Virus record (IMG/VR): IMGVR_UViG_2737471824_000005 | Coordinates: 1 to 17,145 of that record | Direction: 5' to 3' (one strand) | Length of the DNA stretch: 17,145 nucleotides | Source of the DNA: a virus | Taxonomy: Duplodnaviria > Heunggongvirae > Uroviricota > Caudoviricetes | Shown here: positions 1 to 17,145 of the stretch, piece by piece | Numbering within the stretch: the stretch's first letter is position 1 | Layout: every line of letters starts with the position of its first letter | Notes under the pieces: model-generated | Databases searched by the model: none | The model's input: only the letters and a program-made list of their open reading frames with translations | Told to the model about the DNA's origin: nothing | Position numbers and translations under genes: made by a program

Positions 1-573
1 ATGTTTTGCGAAGAAAAAGTAGCTCAAATGGCTGCATACCTACTTCTTAAGCGAGGTGGGCGCATGGCATATCTGAAATTGATGAAGCTGCTCTATCTGT
101 CTAACCGCAAGTCGATTTTGAAGCATGGCAGGATGATCGGCGAAGATAGCCTTTACTCTATGAAATTTGGTCCAGTCATGTCGAATACGCTGAACTTGAT
201 TCGTGGTAAGGCTGAAGGTATTGGTGACTACTGGTACAACCTGATAGAGACGAACGGGCATGATGTGTTGTTGCGTTCAGATCCGAGGGAAATGGATGCA
301 GACGAGGTCTTTGATGAGTTGAGCCGTGCAGATATCCGGATTTTAGATGAAATCTATTCTCTGTATGGGCATATGAACCGATTTGATCTCGCAAACATGA
401 CGCATTTAGAAAGCGTTTGTCCAGAGTGGCACAATCCTGGCAATTCTCGTAAGCCTATAGACCTGAAAGAAATGCTGATCAGTGAGGGTAAAAGCGAGGA
501 TGAGGCTAATCGTATAATTGGCAAAATGGAAGAATCTCAGAAACTTAAGGAATTTTCTTTGCAATTATCATGA
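1..573 (+). CDS. Panacea/DUF4065-like protein (SocA/PanA-type putative antitoxin); may be N-terminally cut by window edge
   Basis: ORF starts at base 1; N-terminal signature 'AAYLLLKRGGRMAYLKLMKLLYLSNRKS' resembles the conserved helix pattern of DUF4065/Panacea proteins; stop overlaps next start (ATGA at 570-573). Confidence 0.5.
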   Translation: MFCEEKVAQMAAYLLLKRGGRMAYLKLMKLLYLSNRKSILKHGRMIGEDSLYSMKFGPVMSNTLNLIRGKAEGIGDYWYNLIETNGHDVLLRSDPREMDADEVFDELSRADIRILDEIYSLYGHMNRFDLANMTHLESVCPEWHNPGNSRKPIDLKEMLISEGKSEDEANRIIGKMEESQKLKEFSLQLS

Positions 574-989
574 CGGATTATCAGCCATACAGGAAAGGAA
601 CTGTGCTTGCCCCAACTGGGCCATGCAATCATCTTCATGTGATTTGTAATGATCCTGTTTATTACCCCGTTAACGATTGTTATTGTGTTTTAGTTGTTAA
701 TATTTCTAGTATCAAGGATGGTGTCCCCCACGATCCGTCTTGCGTCTTGAATTCTGGTGATCATCGCTTTATCAAGCATCCAAGTTATGTTGTTTACGCT
801 GAAGCTATAATTTGGCGAGTGGATAACATGGTTAGAAAGCAGCGATCGGGTGAGATTTCCGTTCATGATGATATGCCAGAAGCTACATTCAATAGAATTC
901 TGGACGGTTTTGATATATCTGATGAAGTTACGCCAAAGAACCTTAAATTTAAAAATAAATATTGCGTATCATCTATTGATGATGAGTAA
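570..989 (+). CDS. hypothetical 139-aa protein, translationally coupled partner of the Panacea-like gene (candidate toxin)
   Basis: ATG at 570 overlaps upstream stop (ATGA); no domain recognised by eye. Confidence 0.4.
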   Translation: MTDYQPYRKGTVLAPTGPCNHLHVICNDPVYYPVNDCYCVLVVNISSIKDGVPHDPSCVLNSGDHRFIKHPSYVVYAEAIIWRVDNMVRKQRSGEISVHDDMPEATFNRILDGFDISDEVTPKNLKFKNKYCVSSIDDE

Positions 990-1567: not shown

Positions 1568-2383
1568 TTACTTATTCATTTCAATAATATTATTTTCTAT
1601 CATTGATTTATTTAAAACCAAAGAAGGAGCAAGATGGTTGTCTATTTTAAACAATGCATAACTTTTAAACTGTTGGTGATATCCGTAACTAATAAGGATG
1701 CTAGAAAAATCTCTTAATTCATCTTCTTTTAAAAAATTAAAATGAAATGGGTTGTCACCATTTATGAACAATGAAACATCTATTATGCAGTATTTCTCTC
1801 CGTTGTCATTTGCATAGAAAAAAATATAAGACATTCTGTTTGTTAAGACAATGCCATTAAATTTTCTTATGTCTGTAGCTATTTTGTTTTCCATGTTTGG
1901 TGCTACATATTTATTTTCAGAAATACATTTAATTTCATCTCCAGATGTCGTGATTATATAAAAATGAAACTTATCAGAAATATCTAACTTAACTACGCCA
2001 TCATTATTGTAAAGGCTGCTAAATTTTGGTGGTTCAACTTTTAAAGAATCATAGTTCTTTAAAAGAAGAGGGGAGTCAAATTTAATAACTTGTAGTATCC
2101 CTTTACCTTCAACCTCCATATTGATTGAAGATATAGCAATTGCATTATCTCTTTTATTATTCAGGATTATGGTTGATATATGCATGTCATATATTCTACT
2201 TGCATTTGCTGAATACGACACTGTCACCTTTTTTGATATTTTTTGCACGCCAAAATATATAGTGAAGGCAGCGGCAAGAATAGATAAGAATTTAATGTCA
2301 AATAAGGACCATAGCCACATTAGTTGCTCAATTGCTTCAGAGTTAATCATTTGCTTTACCATTATCGCTGTAATACAACACAT
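1568..2383 (-). CDS. AT-rich hypothetical protein with N-terminal transmembrane anchor (candidate moron)
   Basis: ORF open to 2401 but that codon is TTG; first ATG at 2383 (others at 2362, 2350); hydrophobic segment 'LMWLWSLFDIKFLSILAAAFTIYFGV'; visibly lower GC than flanking genes; no recognisable domain. Confidence 0.5.
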   Translation of the reverse strand: MCCITAIMVKQMINSEAIEQLMWLWSLFDIKFLSILAAAFTIYFGVQKISKKVTVSYSANASRIYDMHISTIILNNKRDNAIAISSINMEVEGKGILQVIKFDSPLLLKNYDSLKVEPPKFSSLYNNDGVVKLDISDKFHFYIITTSGDEIKCISENKYVAPNMENKIATDIRKFNGIVLTNRMSYIFFYANDNGEKYCIIDVSLFINGDNPFHFNFLKEDELRDFSSILISYGYHQQFKSYALFKIDNHLAPSLVLNKSMIENNIIEMNK

Positions 2384-2504
2384 GTGTGTATATATACGCA
2401 ATGCAATTATTTTGCAAGTGCTTCATTTACTATCAATAGCTACGTCACGTTATTGTTTAATGGTTCTTTATAGGGGCGGCAATAGTTAAAATTATCGCTT
2501 CCGT

Positions 2505-10759: not shown

Positions 10760-10769
10760 TGGGGTGAAT

Positions 10770-13700
10770 ATGGCAGTAAAGATTTCAGGTGTACTGAAAG
10801 ACGGCACAGGAAAACCGGTACAGAACTGCACAATCCAGCTGAAAGCAAAACGTAACAGCACCGCGGTGGTGGTGAACACGCTGGCCTCAGAAAATCCGGA
10901 TGAAGCCGGGCGTTACAGCATGGACGTTGAGTACGGTCAGTACAGCGTTATTCTGTTGGTGGAAGGCTTCCCGCCATCGCATGCCGGGACCATCACCGTG
11001 TATGAAGACTCACAACCGGGTACGCTGAATGATTTTCTCGGTGCCATGACGGAGGATGATGCCCGTCCGGAGGCACTGCGCCGTTTTGAGCTGATGGTGG
11101 AAGAAGTGGCGCGTAACGCGTCCGCGGTGGCACAGAACACGGCAGAGGCTGCTATTTCTGCCTCTCAGGCCGAAGAGTTCGCGAGCAATGCTTCTGAATA
11201 TGCGCTGAATAAGTTCACGTTCTATAAAACGCCGAGCGATCCGGACGGTACAATTGCAGGCCTTGCTGCTACTACCAGCGGGCAGTCTTTCCGTGTAGCG
11301 GAAGGCCCGGGAGCAACAGCGGCATTCAAAACCTACGAGAACCAGGATGGCGTGGCTATACTACAGGCTTCTCAGCCAGGCACAGCTGCTATAACAGGGA
11401 CAATCCGCGAATTTCCCACGCTGGAGGCGGCACAGGCTGATGCAGACGCTGGCAATATTCTTTCTGGTTCAAAATGCTGGGTAACCAGTGCTATAAATAC
11501 CTCGCTGGCTGACGAGTATGTAAATACATCCGGGGTTATGACTGCAACCGGGAGAACAATTATTTCCCAGTACAGCCTATCTTCGTCTATATCAAGAGAA
11601 GCAACCAGAAGAAAAAATGGTGATTATCAGGATTTGATTGAATTCAAATCTCTTGATGATACAGCACTACCATTACCGGAAAATTCAGTATTAGAATTTT
11701 TGTCTCTGGCAACCACTACGGATGTAAACACAAACTTCTATCGCCTTGTTTTTTCTTCGCTGGGTTCTGAGGTTGCGTCACTGGTTTTTCCTGGGACGAA
11801 CACCCAGTATTCTGATGGTAAATTCTGGTCAGCGTATCGCCTGTTCCGATTTCAGGATTTGAAGTATGTTTCCATTCTGGAAACGACCAGTAGTGTAGTT
11901 CGGGTTCGCTATGACCTGCCGGCTGGGTTTGGTGTTCCGGTAGCAGGCTCAAACTATATTGCACTTGATATTACAGGCAAGTTTTATCCGGCGCAGGCAG
12001 GCTCAGTTAACTCCGTCACAAGGAAGTCAATATCCGGGACAGCAATTGCCAACGCCATTCAGTTCGTGGTTACCATCGCTGAACTTACGGCTGCTGGTTA
12101 TACGGCGTCGACCGTTGTTGATTACATCAACTCAATAGCGCCAGATTGCCTCTTTGCGGCATATGCGGCATATGATACGACGATTGCCCAGACAGGGTTT
12201 GAAGATTTTTTCAGGATTCAGTTACCTGCTGGTGATTATACCGTTAGCCGTGATGGCTTTGCGCCTTCAGGACTGGCAGTGTTACCTGCCGGTGCGTATT
12301 CGGTATGGCGTAAAAAGCCTGTAAGGCAGGTATTTGTTGGAAACTTCCTGAGAAATGTTGCTGATGTTAAAAATCTGCTGTCGGCAGAATATAAAAACTA
12401 TCCCGTTGAGCTTAAGGTGTCGTTTGGTCCCGGCGAAGTGCCAGACTCCGATGCGCTGAAGGTGATGGACGCTGACGGCAACGTGTTTGACTGCCAGTTT
12501 GCGGATAACGTTTATCCCAATCCACGCCTGAAATCGAACACCGGATACCATGCCGACGGCTCCCTGGCATCAGGGTCTGTGTTCATCACCGATACCCTGG
12601 CATCAGGACAGCAGAAATATTACGAACTCAGGGCATACAATCGTCGCCGCCAGGACCTGGCCTCAGAGTCCTTCCCGCAGCTCGTGAGGGTGGCTGACGG
12701 GTTCACCGTTACCGTGGGCGGGTATGTGTATTTTTTCCAGCGCCAGAACAGCCTGGGGCTGACCAGTATCACCGACCCGGCAGGACAGACGCACAGTTTT
12801 GCGCATTCCTGTTACTGTACCGGGATTGTCTCCGGCGGATCCTCAAGTAACCAGATGGTGCTCGGTGCATCACTGCGCATGGTTAATACCGGGCCGGTCT
12901 TTACTGAGCTGGAGCTGACCGTCAGAAACCGGACCATCGGAACACTGGCTGAAGGGGCGTTACAGTCCACAGTACGCTACCGGATTTTCAAAAATGGCAA
13001 GGTGCTTATCCGGGTCATGACCACGGCTACGCAAGATATTCCGGCTGGAGTATTATTTGGTGCATATTCCCGTCTGAACCTGAATGATGGTGCATATACC
13101 TTTGATGCCGCTAGAGCACTGACGTACTGGACGGATTCAGTCACCGGCAAGCGATTTACGGCCACGACGGTCTTTGCTAATGGGGATATCCACCGAGATG
13201 GCCCTGCTTATGGGCCAACGCGCCCGATACGGGCAACGGCGCTGCAACCCACAGGCACAACAACTCGGCTGGACGCGGGATGGCTTTTCGTTGACCTGAA
13301 TGACGATTCATTCCTGAACTGGCCTGTGCCAAAAAACTGGACGTGGACACATGAGACATGGATTGACTGCGACAACACCATCACCAGTTCCACCTCAGAG
13401 GTTAATGCACTGCTGGTAAGTCAGGCTAACAACCGCCCGGTAGGGTTCATGGGTGATTGCAGTTATGCAGGTGTTCTGCGGCTGGACATGCTGGAGAAAA
13501 TCGCCTGTCACGTCAGGGGATCCGTTGAGTGGTGGAAAAGCACTGACGCTACTGTTTATGGTGGCGGACCCGATGTGAAAACGCAGTTCTATTGCCACAT
13601 GGCAGAGATTTTTCTGTTAGAAAAGTATGGCATCAGCACGCTGAACACAGTGTATACGAATTTTAAATCGTACATGAGGGGATTTGGCGGCATAACTAAT

Positions 13701-14504
13701 CCAGGTATTATGTTCACTGATGGATGGTGGGGGTTGCAGTTCCAGTCGCGTCTGAGTATTCCGTGCTATGAGTGGCTCTACAAAATGGCGGTGAAGGCCG
13801 GAGATACAGCCAAACAAACCGAGCTGAAGGCGGGGATTAAATCCCTCGCGGATGCCGTCATGGTGTCATATAACACCTATGGTGGCGTGGCTCTGGTGGG
13901 GACAGCCACAAACTCAGGAAACAGCAACTCTAACGCGACAGCCATGCGCGTGCTGGCGCTGGCGATTTATATGGGGCTGGATACCGGCGGGACGTACCTT
14001 GCTGCATTCAATGCGCTGGAGACCTTCATCACGAACTCAGCGACATTCATGAAAGCGGAAAACATTATTCTCGATGGCCCGTCGGATTCCACGCTGAAGA
14101 GCATGTACCTGCCGTACATGGTTTACGCCACTAATAACTACCTGCTGGCCTGCAAGCTGCTTAACCGGACACCAAAGTTTGACCTGGTGAATTTTATCCT
14201 GACAGCGTCAAACAGCGCGGGAGGATTCAGTGAGGTGGATTACTGCATCTCTGAAAGCCGACGTGGTGGCGCGAACACCATCGCGTTTGCGTTACTGCCG
14301 CTGTTTCAGTCCGCCAGGCCGTCAGCAATGATTGCCGCAAAATCGCTGTTCGGAATTTTTGAGACGCAGTACGGGCCGAAACCGGGACTACCAAAGCGCT
14401 TCTTTGATTTTGACGGCAGCAGTGCGGCTGGCAGCACGATGTATGACCCGTGCTTTGTGGCGTCAACGCTTGCCGACCTTTGGCTGTCATATGGCTACAA
14501 TTAA
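10770..14504 (+). CDS. stf: side tail fibre protein, chimeric: lambda Stf-like N-terminal ~150 aa plus ~1,100-aa non-Stf distal region
   Basis: ATG at 10770 (track starts at GTG 10764); N-terminus matches lambda/Rac Stf; the Ala/Ser-rich shaft and Gly/His-rich distal repeats of lambda Stf are absent. Confidence 0.8.
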
Positions 14505-14662
14505 TGGAAAATAGAAATCAGGATGCTGCAGATCTGGAAATCGCAACGGAGGAAGAAACCTCGTTGCTGGAAGCCTGGAAAAAGTATCGGGTGTTGCTGA
14601 ACCGTGTTGATACATCAACTGCACCTGATATTGAGTGGCCTGCGGTCCCTGTTATGGAGTAA
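14504..14662 (+). CDS. tfa: tail fibre assembly protein remnant (C-terminal 52 codons of tfa)
   Basis: '[47 protein letters not shown]' matches the conserved Tfa C-terminus; ATG shares a base with the stf stop (TAATG). Confidence 0.6.
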
Positions 14663-14676
14663 TCGTTTTGTGATAT

Positions 14677-14710
14677 GCCGCAGCAACTTGTCATGGCAGG
14701 ATACTGCGGC
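14677..14710 (+). terminator. possible terminator of the tail fibre operon
   Basis: GCCGCAG / CTGCGGC 7-bp stem with a large 20-nt loop, followed by T-rich sequence. Confidence 0.3.
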
Positions 14711-14774
14711 TGATTTGTGAATTTAAATAGTGTGTTTATTGCTTTATATATAAAGGATTTAATGGATTACATAT

Positions 14775-16145
14775 CTATGATATCCCTGAAATGTCCTCTT
14801 CAAGCTCTTTTACTGATTTCGCAATTTTAAATTTAAATTTTCTCTCTATTTCACTATTGCTAAGTTTTTTTTCATTCTCTTTCCCTATCCACATAGAAAC
14901 AATTTCTCGTTTCTGAGATATATGTAGATTGTCAAAGTTAGGTATGTATTTAAAAGTCTCCGCTCTACCCCTGCGGAGTTCATAGAAAGTTTTAATCAAA
15001 GACTTTGGTTTTATTTCTGATGAAAGGCCGAATCGGCGGATAAGATTATTGATCGTATGATTAACAGCTCGAAGTTGAGCTGTTGACGTTATTTGTGAGA
15101 AGTACGATACCCATCCCAATCGTTTACCTTCAAACACACATCCCGTAATTCTAAGATTTAGTTTCCACTGACAATATGCAACAGCTCGTTCTTTATCGCG
15201 CTTATTTTTAGCTTGTAGTAGAGCGTGTCTATATGCAGTAAAAATTTTTGCTAAGGATGACTCAAATCTAAGAATGCTCTCATGTTTTATCAATAATTCT
15301 CGATTTTTTATGTGGTAGCCCAAAAAGTTGAAACTTTCATCCAAGCTGCCTACTTTGGATTTTGAGTTCTCTTCATTTAATGGATGTGGGTTTAAATTTA
15401 ATGATTGAAGCTTATCAATGATATGAGAAGCTATTTTTGTTGCTTGATATTTTGGTGTTAAAATAAGAATGTCATCAACGTATCGCATGTACCATATGTC
15501 ATGCATTTTATTGATTTCATCATCGAAATTAGATAGTGATATTTCAGCTAAAATGTTTGATATCGCTAATCCCTGAGGTACTCCTCTGGTATTATTAGGG
15601 ATACCTTTGCTTCCTGTGGTTCCACTTACAGTAGGCACGATTAATGATGATGTTATTAACTGTCTAATTTCTTTTTTTCTAATTTTATTTTTTATTGCAT
15701 TAATTATCAATTTATGTTCAATTGAAGGATAGAAACTTTTAAGATCTATTTTTGCATATTCAGCATATAGACTGTTGTTTAATGCTTCTTTCAATGAGTC
15801 AATTACTGTATGTGGTAGTTTTAATCTGGACTTAGGATATATTTCCGTAAGGCATTCACAGAGAGCTCTAAGAGTAATTCTGTCCCTAGCAGTTGGTATG
15901 GAAATCTGTCTGGGTGTAGAGTTAGCGCCTTTAGATATTAATTTTTCTTTATATGCTGTAAATTTGTAATTGCCAGAATTAACCTTTTCAAAAATGAAAG
16001 TGATCTCATTTTTTATTGTCAAATCAAGTTTTGATGGGCGAATCCGATCTATGCCAATCGCTCCTGATTCTTTGATTTTTTCAGAGTATACTTTTAGAAG
16101 ATTTTTTTTCGAGAATGACTTTTTAAAAATTCTGCTTGCAGTCAT
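14775..16145 (-). CDS. reverse transcriptase, retron-like or UG/Abi (DRT) type
   Basis: RT motifs: 'IGIDRIRPS', 'IDLKSFYPSI' (motif A), 'RGVPQGLAISNILAEISL' (motif B), 'YVDD' at 15471-15482 (motif C), 'FLGY', and thumb-like 'RITG' at 15141-15152; track start 16151 is TTG, first ATG is 16145; overlaps the upstream membrane gene; AT-rich. Confidence 0.9.
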   Translation of the reverse strand: MTASRIFKKSFSKKNLLKVYSEKIKESGAIGIDRIRPSKLDLTIKNEITFIFEKVNSGNYKFTAYKEKLISKGANSTPRQISIPTARDRITLRALCECLTEIYPKSRLKLPHTVIDSLKEALNNSLYAEYAKIDLKSFYPSIEHKLIINAIKNKIRKKEIRQLITSSLIVPTVSGTTGSKGIPNNTRGVPQGLAISNILAEISLSNFDDEINKMHDIWYMRYVDDILILTPKYQATKIASHIIDKLQSLNLNPHPLNEENSKSKVGSLDESFNFLGYHIKNRELLIKHESILRFESSLAKIFTAYRHALLQAKNKRDKERAVAYCQWKLNLRITGCVFEGKRLGWVSYFSQITSTAQLRAVNHTINNLIRRFGLSSEIKPKSLIKTFYELRRGRAETFKYIPNFDNLHISQKREIVSMWIGKENEKKLSNSEIERKFKFKIAKSVKELEEDISGIS

Positions 16146-16674
16146 AGTCAATCCAAAGATATATTAATGGGAGTATATAAAGTGCGGCAGTAATAAATAT
16201 TCGAAGTAATATCCATAAAATAACAATTATTTTTTCTTTTTGTGTGGGGATCCTCGTCTTAAGTCCAACTTGAGTTACCCTTGAAATTTTATCATCTATG
16301 TCACGGTGATTCTCAACCTCATTGAGCAAATTAAAATATTTTTCTTTCTGTTCAAGAGATAACTGTTGACTGGTGGTAATGTCAAAATAGAGTCGCTGTA
16401 GTGCAATATAATTCCTTCTCATGGCTATTGCTCGACCACGAAAATCTAGGTTAGATACGATCAGAGAAATACCCAGTAGAGCCACTGAAAGTATCGCCGC
16501 AACGACATCTGTATTATCTCCTAGAACCTTTGGAAATCGCAACGTTACAATTGAAAGTACCGCACTCAATATAGCATACCAAACGAGGATAAATTGAGAG
16601 TGTTTTTCAAGCCATTCTAGTCGATGGTGCGCTTGGATACGTGCTTTATATGTAAACCAAATATTGTCATGCAT
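16123..16674 (-). CDS. 3-TM membrane protein, candidate effector of the RT system
   Basis: 183 aa; hydrophobic helices 'FILVWYAILSAVLSIVTL', 'VVAAILSVALLGISLIVS' and 'IIVILWILLRIFITAALYILPLIYLWI'; AAGGA SD; 3' end overlaps the RT start by 23 nt. Confidence 0.65.
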   Translation of the reverse strand: MHDNIWFTYKARIQAHHRLEWLEKHSQFILVWYAILSAVLSIVTLRFPKVLGDNTDVVAAILSVALLGISLIVSNLDFRGRAIAMRRNYIALQRLYFDITTSQQLSLEQKEKYFNLLNEVENHRDIDDKISRVTQVGLKTRIPTQKEKIIVILWILLRIFITAALYILPLIYLWIDYDCKQNF

Positions 16675-16694
16675 AAAAGATCCTTTTTAAAAGC

Positions 16695-16829
16695 GGAAGG
16701 GGCAGGATATATTGGAACCGTTGAACATCCTGCCCGGCAGGATCAGTGAGCATAAGCTCAACAGTAAAATATTACTGTTCATTATCAGAGCCGCCCTTGC
16801 ATGCGCAAGAGGAAAAACCTGCCCCATCC
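16695..16829 (-). ncRNA. candidate structured ncRNA (retron msr-msd-like) in the leader of the RT operon
   Basis: 12-nt inverted repeats (11/12 match) at 16818-16829 and 16695-16706 flank hairpins at 16796-16809, 16760-16779 and 16747-16760, and a GGCAGGAT/ATCCTGCC palindrome at 16727-16743. Confidence 0.35.
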
Positions 16830-16835
16830 CTTTGA

Positions 16836-16865
16836 ATTATTACAATTTAATGATCTTAAAGTCAA
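16836..16865 (-). promoter_or_regulatory. putative sigma70 promoter of the RT cassette
   Basis: On - strand: TTGACT (16860-16865), then TG-extended -10 (TAATAA/AATAAT, 16836-16844); predicted start falls at the first base of the upstream inverted repeat. Confidence 0.4.
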
Positions 16866-16896
16866 TACAAGTGAATGGTGTCCAGAGATGATGAAC

Positions 16897-17145
16897 TTAA
16901 TGAACAAACCACTCGTCAGCAGACTCCCAGGTATCTTTCAGAGTCTCCTGAACAAAAGTTTTAGCTGAATCTTTATCAGCGGTGCGCGTAACAGAAAGGC
17001 CATCGTTGCTGGTGGCTTTTACGATCACTTCTACATCGTCATAACGTTTACTGATGCGTCGGGTTAATTCTTCCTTTAACGCATCCACAGCACCGGTTGG
17101 CATTTTAGTCATTTTTTCTTTGGCTATGCAGATTTCAATACGCAT
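16897..17145 (-). CDS. dinI: DinI-family protein
   Basis: 82 aa, '[10 protein letters not shown]...[11 protein letters not shown]' matches the DinI termini as recalled; start codon is the last triplet of the window. Confidence 0.85.

Follow-up and report, generated by a model that had tools for sequence, protein, structure and literature searches.

A very probable Eco3-type DRT10 cassette with a variant template allele in a degraded lambdoid prophage

Next to the dinI gene of a tailed-virus (Caudoviricetes) sequence lies a reverse transcriptase (RT) gene preceded by a small membrane-protein gene and a leader, which raises the question of what kind of RT system this is and whether it has been described before. 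The sequence, referred to here as the window, is the whole stretch of 17,145 nucleotides analysed (IMG/VR record IMGVR_UViG_2737471824_000005). The original prediction read the locus as an anti-phage system built on an RT, a structured RNA and a membrane effector, named UG/DRT systems among the candidates, and suspected an undescribed variant. We are highly confident that the cassette is an intact Eco3-type DRT10 system (UG17, class 2 UG/Abi) that rides as cargo in a degraded lambdoid prophage, at the end nearest the integrase, because the RT matches the RT_UG17 profile over its full length, the membrane protein is recognized as SLATT_5 in three libraries, the order is ncRNA-SLATT-RT, the RT is close to that of Eco3, and the ncRNA and its template are homologous to those of Eco3. 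Such a cassette is already known: the pairing of UG17 with SLATT was catalogued in 2022, and DRT10 was characterised in preprints of 2025-26.

The protein-coding part of the cassette and its flanks comprise the following features.

14775..16151, minus strand: RT open reading frame, 458 aa from a TTG, 456 aa from the ATG at 16145
14775..16145, minus strand: UG17 (DRT10) reverse transcriptase, 456 aa, named from PADLOC RT_UG17 and identity to the Eco3 RT
15471..15482, minus strand: catalytic YVDD, residues 222-225, read from the sequence
14778..14780, minus strand: codon of the C-terminal Ser456, the predicted protein-priming residue
16123..16674, minus strand: SLATT_5 open reading frame, 183 aa
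14507-14662, plus strand: tail-fibre assembly protein remnant
16897-17145, minus strand: DinI

Read along the minus strand, the cassette runs from a structured RNA through the SLATT gene to the RT gene, and the open reading frames of 183 and 456 residues (16123-16674 and 14775-16145) overlap by 23 nt, as the operon had been described. Among UG17 (DRT10) systems this order with an overlap of the genes predominates, so that an effector upstream of the RT, taken in the original prediction as fitting no nameable architecture and as a sign of novelty, is the usual DRT10 layout. The flanks are also as proposed, with DinI on one side and a tail-fibre assembly gene on the other, the latter a remnant since it encodes the C-terminal 45 residues alone (Caudo_TAP profile positions 86-130 of 131), and the cassette occupies a prophage cargo position. 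The idea of an AT-rich insert between GC-rich flanks holds in part: GC is 0.30-0.36 over 14600-16400 versus 0.53 on the tail-fibre side, whereas the dinI side, at about 0.41, is not GC-rich. With a GC of 0.49 in the ncRNA, the AT-rich part consists of the two coding sequences.

The RT matches PADLOC RT_UG17 at 1.1e-158 and 526.6 bits, with residues 1-456 aligned to profile positions 1-429 of 429, its membership of UG17 being a matter of profile scores and not of phylogeny. The next-best PADLOC family is Drt3a (5.4e-38), with Drt2 at 1e-24 and Drt9 at 6.4e-20. Compared over 399 residues, it is 98.0% identical to the Eco3 RT (OKX54664), with 8 differences. We take the ATG at 16145 as the start because M1 is invariant in 13 homologues, and an equal 2-residue correction was made to the Eco3 RT by Tang et al. 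(bioRxiv 10.1101/2025.10.16.682844). The canonical motif that had been noticed is YVDD, and its four residues, Y222, V223, D224 and D225, are likewise invariant in the 13 homologues, as is S456, on which the C-terminus (...EEDISGIS) ends. By analogy with Eco3, where this has been shown, S456 would be the priming residue. The exact protein is present on 732 contigs. Its accession, WP_039268535, was not found among the entries listed from Table S1 of Tang et al., although EEDISGIS occurs at least 28 times in the part of that table at hand, i.e. close variants of the RT are included.

Comparing the RT with retron, UG/DRT and group II models, as the original prediction had proposed, gives RT_UG17 as the best match, with the retron and group II models below their cut-offs. 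An RT/maturase of the group II intron type, or a mobile retroelement of another kind, could be suspected from a partial match to TIGR04416 group_II_RT_mat (4.4e-42) and from one identical GenBank copy named ‘Maturase-related protein’, but the 144 bits of that match fall far short of the 300-bit equivalog cut-off, no intron RNA family is found between 14300 and 17145 (Rfam, E<=1), SLATT and the ncRNA always accompany the RT, and the median of one copy per carrier genome is unlike mobile spread. We consider such an origin exceedingly improbable.

The membrane protein matches PADLOC RTasSLATT (1.5e-56), Pfam SLATT_5 (1.3e-28; 100 bits against a cut-off of 29.5) and NCBIfam SLATT_5 (136 bits against a cut-off of 60). 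A Kyte-Doolittle scan (19 residues, threshold 1.6) agrees with the three transmembrane helices expected, placing hydrophobic stretches at residues 25-52, 54-79 and 146-177, with cores at about 28-47, 57-76 and 149-173. The exact protein is present on at least 1000 contigs, and it shows 4 differences over 183 residues from that of an E. coli genome with an Eco3-type template (L005).

Upstream of the SLATT gene, the leader contains the following elements.

16836..16865, minus strand: sigma-70-type promoter-like site for the ncRNA, with TTGACT, an 18-nt spacer, AATAAT and a TG before the -10
about 16693..16829, minus strand: DRT10 ncRNA, about 137 nt, with ends placed by its register against the RIP-seq species published for Eco3
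16699..16825, minus strand: basal stem SL1, enclosing the whole structure, in which GGGGCAGG (16818-16825) pairs with CCUGCCCC (16699-16706)
16727..16743, minus strand: hairpin SL5, directly 5' of the template loop, 7 pairs, 98% paired
16707..16726, minus strand: 20-nt template loop GUUCAACGGUUCCAAUAUAU, unpaired in the supported structure
16715..16723, minus strand: predicted 9-nt template (A-B) CAACGGUUC, at the position of the published Eco3 template CAAUGAUUC
16711..16714, minus strand: realignment repeat A' (CAAU)

The promoter-like site shares the top score of the scan (10/12), is the sole site with the extended -10 TG and is invariant across 5 E. coli alleles. It puts the start of transcription near 16829, the 5' end deduced from the published 137-nt Eco3 ncRNA, and we infer from its sequence that it promotes the ncRNA. 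The segment 16690-16832 (minus strand) folds at -57.6 kcal/mol (z = -4.6), with 0/200 shuffles folding as well, into a basal stem, four hairpins and the 20-nt template loop. Covariation over 16 homologous loci supports all five helices, in keeping with the structured leader first noticed: 14 of the 34 pairs show compensatory changes, and 98.2% of cells are paired versus 45-56% when the partner is slid, values obtained on an alignment fitted to the supplied ncRNA model and thereby biased toward that structure. In SL1, all 8 pairs are formed in 100% of cases over 15 distinct sequences, and 2 of them have changed on both sides. A basal stem is essential for ncRNA stability in the related UG17-A system (Sanchez-Nieto et al., bioRxiv 10.64898/2026.04.29.721553). 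In the minimum free energy structure, CUG (45-47, numbered within this 143-nt segment) in addition pairs with CGG (113-115) in the template, next to neighbouring GG/CC pairs; these were all removed from the model because the Eco3 allele is unable to form them.

Between 14300 and 17145, Rfam 15 (E<=1) gives no family for the ncRNA, its sole matches being an IS009-like one in the tail-fibre/tfa region and a chance ‘bantam’, and we therefore built a model of our own. This model, R1, has one match in the window (187 bits) and lies upstream of SLATT in 24 of 34 homologous loci on viral contigs (those where it scored), down to an RT identity of 61%. As a minor possibility, the basal stem and the CUUCCGCUUUU after it might work as a leaky terminator and so fix how much ncRNA is made relative to SLATT-RT mRNA.

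A retron, with an msr-msd RNA reverse-transcribed into msDNA and the membrane protein as effector, bears a superficial likeness to this arrangement, since it too would combine an RT with a structured RNA and a transmembrane effector in a single operon; several homologues are named ‘retron-type reverse transcriptase’ in databases, and the a1/a2 inverted repeats have a loose counterpart in the basal stem. Against the resemblance, which the original prediction had also drawn, the RT scores 58.4 bits on NCBIfam retron_St85_RT where the cut-off is 235 bits, no retron model is among its best 25 PADLOC families while UG17 matches at full length at 1e-158, and the RNA has the DRT10 ncRNA architecture, a template ncRNA and not msr-msd, with the published template at the homologous site. 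Furthermore, the 98%-identical Eco3 system gives protein-primed tandem-repeat ssDNA and not RNA-branched msDNA. The comparison with ‘NAxxH’ is irrelevant to the UG17 clade, and we hold the chance of a retron to be negligible.

With the DRT10 reading, the template loop can be read in detail. Twenty substitutions were assayed in the Eco3 loop (Tang et al.), which fits the 20-nt length. Directly 3' of SL5, the loop contains CAA-CGGUUC-CAA, and this A-B-A' pattern, with CAA...CAA around a variable segment of 6-7 nt, is found in 16/16 aligned homologues. SL5 is likely the template-boundary element in this copy by analogy with Eco3, in which only the scrambling of SL5 fully abolished repeat products (Tang et al.). 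Another class 2 UG system of DRT3-like or DRT9-like kind would make low-complexity or homopolymer DNA and not a 9-nt repeat; Drt3a (5.4e-38) and Drt9 (6.4e-20) are among the second-best matches of the RT, the DRT10 and DRT9 ncRNAs are reported to be similar, and SLATT proteins accompany DRT3 and DRT9 too. On the other hand, the UG17 score leads every other family by some 120 orders of magnitude, NCBIfam Drt3a reaches 112.6 bits against a 200-bit cut-off, the cassette has one RT open reading frame and lacks a second RT gene (Drt3b/UG8), and the template loop has CAA-N6-CAA in place of a poly-U or ACACAC tract, which together make a DRT3-like or DRT9-like system very improbable.

Of the three bases that distinguish the ncRNA from the Eco3 allele, two lie in the template (CAACGGUUC+CAAU versus CAAUGAUUC+CAAU), while the third, at position 3 of the aligned 143-nt segment, lies just upstream of the deduced 5' end. 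In DNA form, the window has CAACGGTTC+CAAT, and the E. coli alleles L003 and L005 have CAATGATTC+CAAT, equal to the published Eco3 template, the sequence of which was taken from the text of the paper and from these two alleles. The two template substitutions lie within the 9 nt that determine the sequence of the DNA repeat, and the cDNA repeat of this allele is therefore predicted from the sequence to be 5'-GAACCGTTG-3', not the GAATCATTG of Eco3. A and A' mismatch at the fourth base (CAAC versus CAAU), so realignment would use three base pairs and a dG:rU wobble; the shortest A-A' homology reported to work is 3 nt (Tang et al.). The 47-nt template stretch of the window is exact in 154 of the 188 complete E. 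coli genomes that carry the cassette, and we infer that the remaining 34 probably have the Eco3 template, in which case the allele of the window would be the commoner and that of Eco3 the minority in complete E. coli genomes. It seems unlikely, if conceivable, that the repeat sequence is under diversifying selection, e.g. tuning SLATT recognition or escape from phage counter-measures, and not neutral.

The likeness to the Eco3 system of E. coli 703491 (Tang et al.) thus extends over every part named for DRT10, namely a UG17 RT, an adjoining SLATT_5 gene overlapping into the RT gene, a structured ncRNA, a repeat-flanked template, YVDD and S456. Both have a 456-aa RT with YVDD and a C-terminal S456, an overlapping SLATT_5 gene upstream of it, and a ncRNA of about 137 nt upstream of SLATT with five helices, a 20-nt template loop and CAAU as A'; they differ in the template and its repeat, and in the A/A' match, which is 4/4 in Eco3 versus 3/4 in the window allele. 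The UG17-A DRT10 of Escherichia sp. E3659 (Sanchez-Nieto et al.) is likewise a tripartite ncRNA-SLATT-RT system of Pseudomonadota with a basal stem closing the ncRNA and a template between short direct repeats, and it makes tandem-repeat cDNA and needs SLATT. It differs in having a 143-nt ncRNA with six stem-loops, an RT of about 445 aa and the template ACUUAUUACU, which yields a 7-nt repeat (AGTAATA). We assign the window cassette to subtype A from architecture and taxon, not from phylogeny.

Among class 2 UG/Abi systems, DRT9 (UG28) and DRT2 (UG2) likewise combine a stand-alone RT with a structured template ncRNA and iterative copying of a template that is short or bounded by repeats. DRT9 shares protein priming with DRT10, but from a tyrosine and in a hexamer, and makes poly(dA) from a poly-U template; DRT2, unlike DRT10, is RNA-primed and uses rolling-circle copying to build a concatemeric gene; and neither of them needs the kind of SLATT effector on which DRT10 depends. 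Telomerase (TERT and its RNA) also has a short template in a separate structured RNA, a template-boundary helix and repeat-addition realignment, an analogy argued together with a phylogenetic link by Tang et al. However, telomerase is a protein of about 1100 aa primed at chromosome ends, whereas the RT of DRT10 has 456 aa, is protein-primed and serves in defence with a membrane effector.

In Eco3 and two other E. coli DRT10 systems, tandem-repeat cDNA depends on the RT, and defence needs the RT, SLATT and the ncRNA (Tang et al.). Carried over to this allele from the 98%-identical Eco3, repeat cDNA, priming and phage defence may be pictured as follows. The promoter-like site (16865-16836) would drive the ncRNA of about 137 nt (about 16829-16693), independent ncRNA expression having been shown in the related UG17-A system (Sanchez-Nieto et al.), and the RNA would fold into the covariation-supported basal stem, four hairpins and 20-nt template loop. 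The RT would bind it and prime DNA from the hydroxyl of its own C-terminal Ser456, as shown for Eco3, copy the 9-nt template up to the boundary set by SL5, and re-anneal the nascent 3' end on the downstream CAA(U). Repeated cycles would yield a kilobase-long single strand of the predicted (GAACCGTTG)n, covalently held on the RT, in the telomerase-like manner of Eco3. Host ExoI (SbcB) may restrain the cDNA products, and a phage SSB-like protein may trigger the system, two results obtained with the E3659 UG17-A homologue. The two preprints (Tang et al.; Sanchez-Nieto et al.) conflict on the cDNA level upon infection, one reporting a fall and the other a rise. SLATT would be the essential effector, presumably a membrane pore leading to growth arrest or death, and abortive infection is a reasonable guess at the mode of action.

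The cassette is present in 188/5426 complete E. coli genomes, where dinI accompanies it at the end of lambdoid prophages located at two chromosomal sites; a tyrosine recombinase is associated with 2/3 of the systems tested by Tang et al. A megablast search of 50,697 GenBank phage records with the cassette found nothing, and prophages and IMG/VR contigs are the only places where it is known. The window is not covered to 80% or more by any complete E. coli genome, and the annotation was therefore drawn from partial matches. Since the window is a mosaic, cut-down prophage whose adjoining tfa is a 45-residue remnant, the cassette might be DRT10 by descent but silent or non-functional, and natural knock-outs exist, such as an IS1 in SLATT in strain 510016. 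Yet both open reading frames are full length and encode exactly the proteins found on 732 contigs (RT) and at least 1000 contigs (SLATT), the promoter-like site is as intact as the ncRNA helices, YVDD and S456, and 100%-identical cassette DNA occurs in many lineages, so that a silent copy is improbable and an intact DRT10 system remains the preferred reading.

As a discovery this adds little, because the DRT10 paper of 2025 already has a 98%-identical E. coli system as its main experimental model. RefSeq names the two proteins ‘reverse transcriptase domain-containing protein’ and ‘SLATT domain-containing protein’, and the ncRNA, absent from Rfam 15, is unannotated (‘none’) in the matches to the 47-nt template query. 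The practical value lies in the annotation of the RT, the SLATT gene and the ncRNA, and the small new points are the coordinates of the ncRNA, the template and the promoter-like site, the probable minority status of the Eco3 template, and the linkage to dinI at two sites.

The cassette is a known DRT10/UG17 system of the type of Eco3, the published DRT10 model from E. coli 703491, and it is real and intact. UG17 reverse transcriptases (RTs) with SLATT partners were described as a class 2 UG/Abi group with predicted defence function by Mestre et al. 2022 (PMC9226505). DRT10 was named and characterised in two preprints, by Tang et al. (10.1101/2025.10.16.682844) and Sanchez-Nieto et al. (10.64898/2026.04.29.721553), both describing a module with three parts, ncRNA, SLATT and RT. 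The original prediction had thus been right to see RT-based defence and a membrane effector here, while its suggestion of an undescribed, retron-like variant has to be given up.

Features of the cassette and its flanks
14507-14662, plus strand: tail-fibre assembly protein, final 45 residues only
14775-16151, minus strand: RT, 458 aa from TTG or 456 aa from the ATG at 16145 (ORF list)
15471-15482, minus strand: YVDD, RT residues 222-225, read in the sequence and the 13-homologue alignment
16123-16674, minus strand: SLATT ORF, 183 aa, overlapping the ATG-started RT by 23 nt (ORF list)
16829 to 16693, minus strand: ncRNA, 137 nt, ends predicted from the published numbering
16726-16707, minus strand: 20-nt template loop, published numbering
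16723-16715, minus strand: template A-B, published numbering
16714-16711, minus strand: realignment repeat A', published numbering
16865-16836, minus strand: sigma-70-like site TTGACT-18-AATAAT, joint top scorer in the region, with an extended -10 TG that no other site has
16897-17145, minus strand: DinI

Run against profile HMMs, the RT matches PADLOC RT_UG17 end to end (1.1e-158, 526.6 bits), with Drt3a second best (5.4e-38). A retron is rejected at 58 bits against a 235-bit cut-off, and a group II intron at 144 bits against 300, with no intron RNA in the Rfam search; DRT3 and DRT9 score far weaker, a second RT is absent, and the template has neither poly-U nor ACAC. The 183-aa protein matches RT-associated SLATT models (1.5e-56), Pfam SLATT_5 (1.3e-28) and NCBIfam SLATT_5 (136 bits, cut-off 60 bits), and its predicted three membrane helices are borne out by hydrophobic segments with cores at about 28-47, 57-76 and 149-173. 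Over the 399 residues compared with the Eco3 RT (OKX54664), the window RT shows 8 differences (98.0% identity); it shares the C-terminus ...EEDISGIS, including the final serine, S456, from which DNA synthesis was shown to be primed in Eco3. Architecture and taxon would place the system in subtype UG17-A. That the cassette is a dead copy is unlikely, as every motif is intact, the RT is identical to a protein on 732 contigs and SLATT to one on at least 1000 contigs.

The ORF list agrees with the predicted overlapping minus-strand gene pair, and the expected flanks, a tail-fibre remnant and DinI, were found. The RT start is assigned to the ATG at 16145 because M1 is invariant in the 13 aligned homologues (60-83% identity) and Tang et al. 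made an identical two-residue correction for the model enzyme (10.1101/2025.10.16.682844). The claim of an AT-rich cassette holds in part: GC is 0.30-0.36 over 14600-16400 and about 0.53 on the tail-fibre side, but only about 0.41 on the dinI side and 0.49 in the ncRNA, which confines the AT-richness to the two coding sequences.

The predicted structured leader is the DRT10 ncRNA. The segment 16690-16832 (minus strand) has a folding energy of -57.6 kcal/mol (z = -4.6), matched by 0 of 200 shuffles, and forms a basal stem in which GGGGCAGG pairs with CCUGCCCC, plus four hairpins and a 20-nt loop that stays unpaired; the published numbering (U110, C116, A117, U119) was placed on this segment. 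Across the ncRNA, the alignment of five E. coli alleles is gap-free. Two of them, from strains 510016 and CFIAFB20180511, carry CAATGATTC+CAAT, the exact published Eco3 template and downstream repeat, whereas the window has CAACGGTTC+CAAT; outside the template, the window differs from these two alleles by one base, at position 3 of the 143-nt segment.

A covariance model, built on the E. coli alleles with five confident helices only, gave one strong match in the window and, among 34 homologous loci from an IMG/VR scan, a single match at the corresponding site upstream of SLATT in 24, with scores ranging from 187 to 52 bits and RT identity falling as low as 61%; most loci lacking a match have too little upstream sequence. 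In 15 distinct sequences, pairing holds in 98.2% of cells, compared with 45-56% when the 3' partners are slid, and 14 of 34 pairs show changes on both sides, measures that no shuffle reached, although the alignment was fitted to the covariance model, which favours this structure. Each of the five helices has at least one compensatory pair. The template loop varies in sequence but keeps a CAA-N6/7-CAA pattern in 16 of 16 sequences, which follows the A-B-A' rule set out by Tang et al., with homology at their reported 3-nt minimum (10.1101/2025.10.16.682844).

The sigma-70-like site would give a transcription start at about 16829. Along 16686-16706 (minus strand), the basal-stem 3' arm CCUGCCCC is followed by CUUCCGCUUUU and the SLATT Shine-Dalgarno AAGGA. 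In the promoter scan, the minus strand showed no further promoter-like site after the ncRNA and before the SLATT start, so SLATT and RT may be transcribed by read-through of the terminator-like ncRNA end.

By analogy, the promoter-like site would drive ncRNA transcription, independent expression being reported for the UG17-A system of Escherichia sp. E3659 (10.64898/2026.04.29.721553). The ncRNA would be bound by the RT and synthesis primed from Ser456; CAACGGUUC would be copied to the boundary of SL5, the hairpin directly 5' of the loop, and the cDNA 3' end would realign on CAA(U). In Eco3, binding (by RIP-seq), Ser456 priming, and template copying with realignment were all shown (10.1101/2025.10.16.682844). 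As the fourth base of A is C and that of A' is U, realignment would create a dG:rU wobble, and the predicted product is kilobase-long ssDNA, (GAACCGTTG)n, attached to the RT. ExoI/SbcB would exert control and a phage SSB-like protein would be the trigger, as shown for E3659 (10.64898/2026.04.29.721553), with SLATT as the putative essential effector, a role shown in both systems (10.1101/2025.10.16.682844, 10.64898/2026.04.29.721553). Tang et al. proposed that cDNA restrains SLATT and drops upon infection (10.1101/2025.10.16.682844); Sanchez-Nieto et al. reported the opposite, a rise (10.64898/2026.04.29.721553).

The host element is a cut-down, mosaic dusA prophage: a Panacea-domain gene and repressor region lead directly to tail genes, the early region (LexA-family repressor, HTH, YmfL) being joined almost directly to them, and head and replication genes are absent from the window. 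The best coverage of the window by any complete E. coli genome is 63%, and none reaches 80%.

Other features of the prophage
1-573, plus strand: SocA/Panacea-domain protein (Pfam 1.8e-18)
570-989, plus strand: 139-aa ORF, overlapping the SocA/Panacea gene by 4 nt
10764-14662, plus strand: 1246-aa tail-fibre ORF, phage_tail_N at its N-terminus, running directly into the tfa remnant

The 139-aa ORF has no Pfam or PADLOC match, and the two genes at 1-989, at the attL end, resemble a PanA-type antitoxin and its possible toxin; directly upstream of them, GN4751 carries a truncated dusA fragment. The most AT-rich stretch of the window (1568-2401, minus strand; GC 0.28-0.33) encodes a 277-aa ORF without Pfam or PADLOC match, a 'hypothetical protein' in the GN4751 annotation, possibly a second cargo gene gained by horizontal transfer. 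An Rfam IS009-like match at 14440-14619 (plus strand; 90 bits, E 1.7e-20, under the 117-bit gathering score) spans the tail-fibre ORF end and the tfa remnant and is probably conserved tfa coding sequence, not an sRNA. This remnant keeps only positions 86-130 of the 131-position Caudo_TAP profile. In genomes whose RT cassette is 100% identical, the tail fibres differ and tfa is complete at 585 nt, which places a recombination joint just left of the cassette, at about 14663-14775.

Of 5426 complete E. coli genomes, 188 carry the cassette, in every case on the chromosome and at a median of one copy; a search of GenBank phage records gave no match. Among the matches listed, a DinI-like gene adjoins it in most carriers. 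In O25b:H4 and GN4751 the order is tail fibre, tfa, RT, SLATT, DinI, integrase, dusA; in other strains the block lies beside prfC. The 47-nt template stretch matches the window exactly in 154 carriers, and in the remaining 34 its identity is 95-99%. Two of these 34 are among the matches listed, both at 95.7%, two mismatches over 47 nt, and probably carry the Eco3 template. The experimentally studied Eco3 allele is therefore probably the minority one.

In E. coli 510016 (NZ_CP025851.1, 2894-5903), SLATT is split by IS1A and the RT is intact, a natural knock-out that would be consistent with selection against a toxic effector; upstream, an ImmA/IrrE and HTH gene pair lies between two DinI-like copies. 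Across E. coli loci, the dinI-ncRNA-SLATT-RT block occupies two chromosomal sites (L001, L005 and L040 versus L002, L003 and L004), adjoining an integrase at dusA at one and prfC, with no integrase between, at the other; thus, it moves as a unit among lambdoid prophages. New for this known system are the coordinates given here, the prediction of a GAACCGTTG repeat and the frequencies of its alleles.
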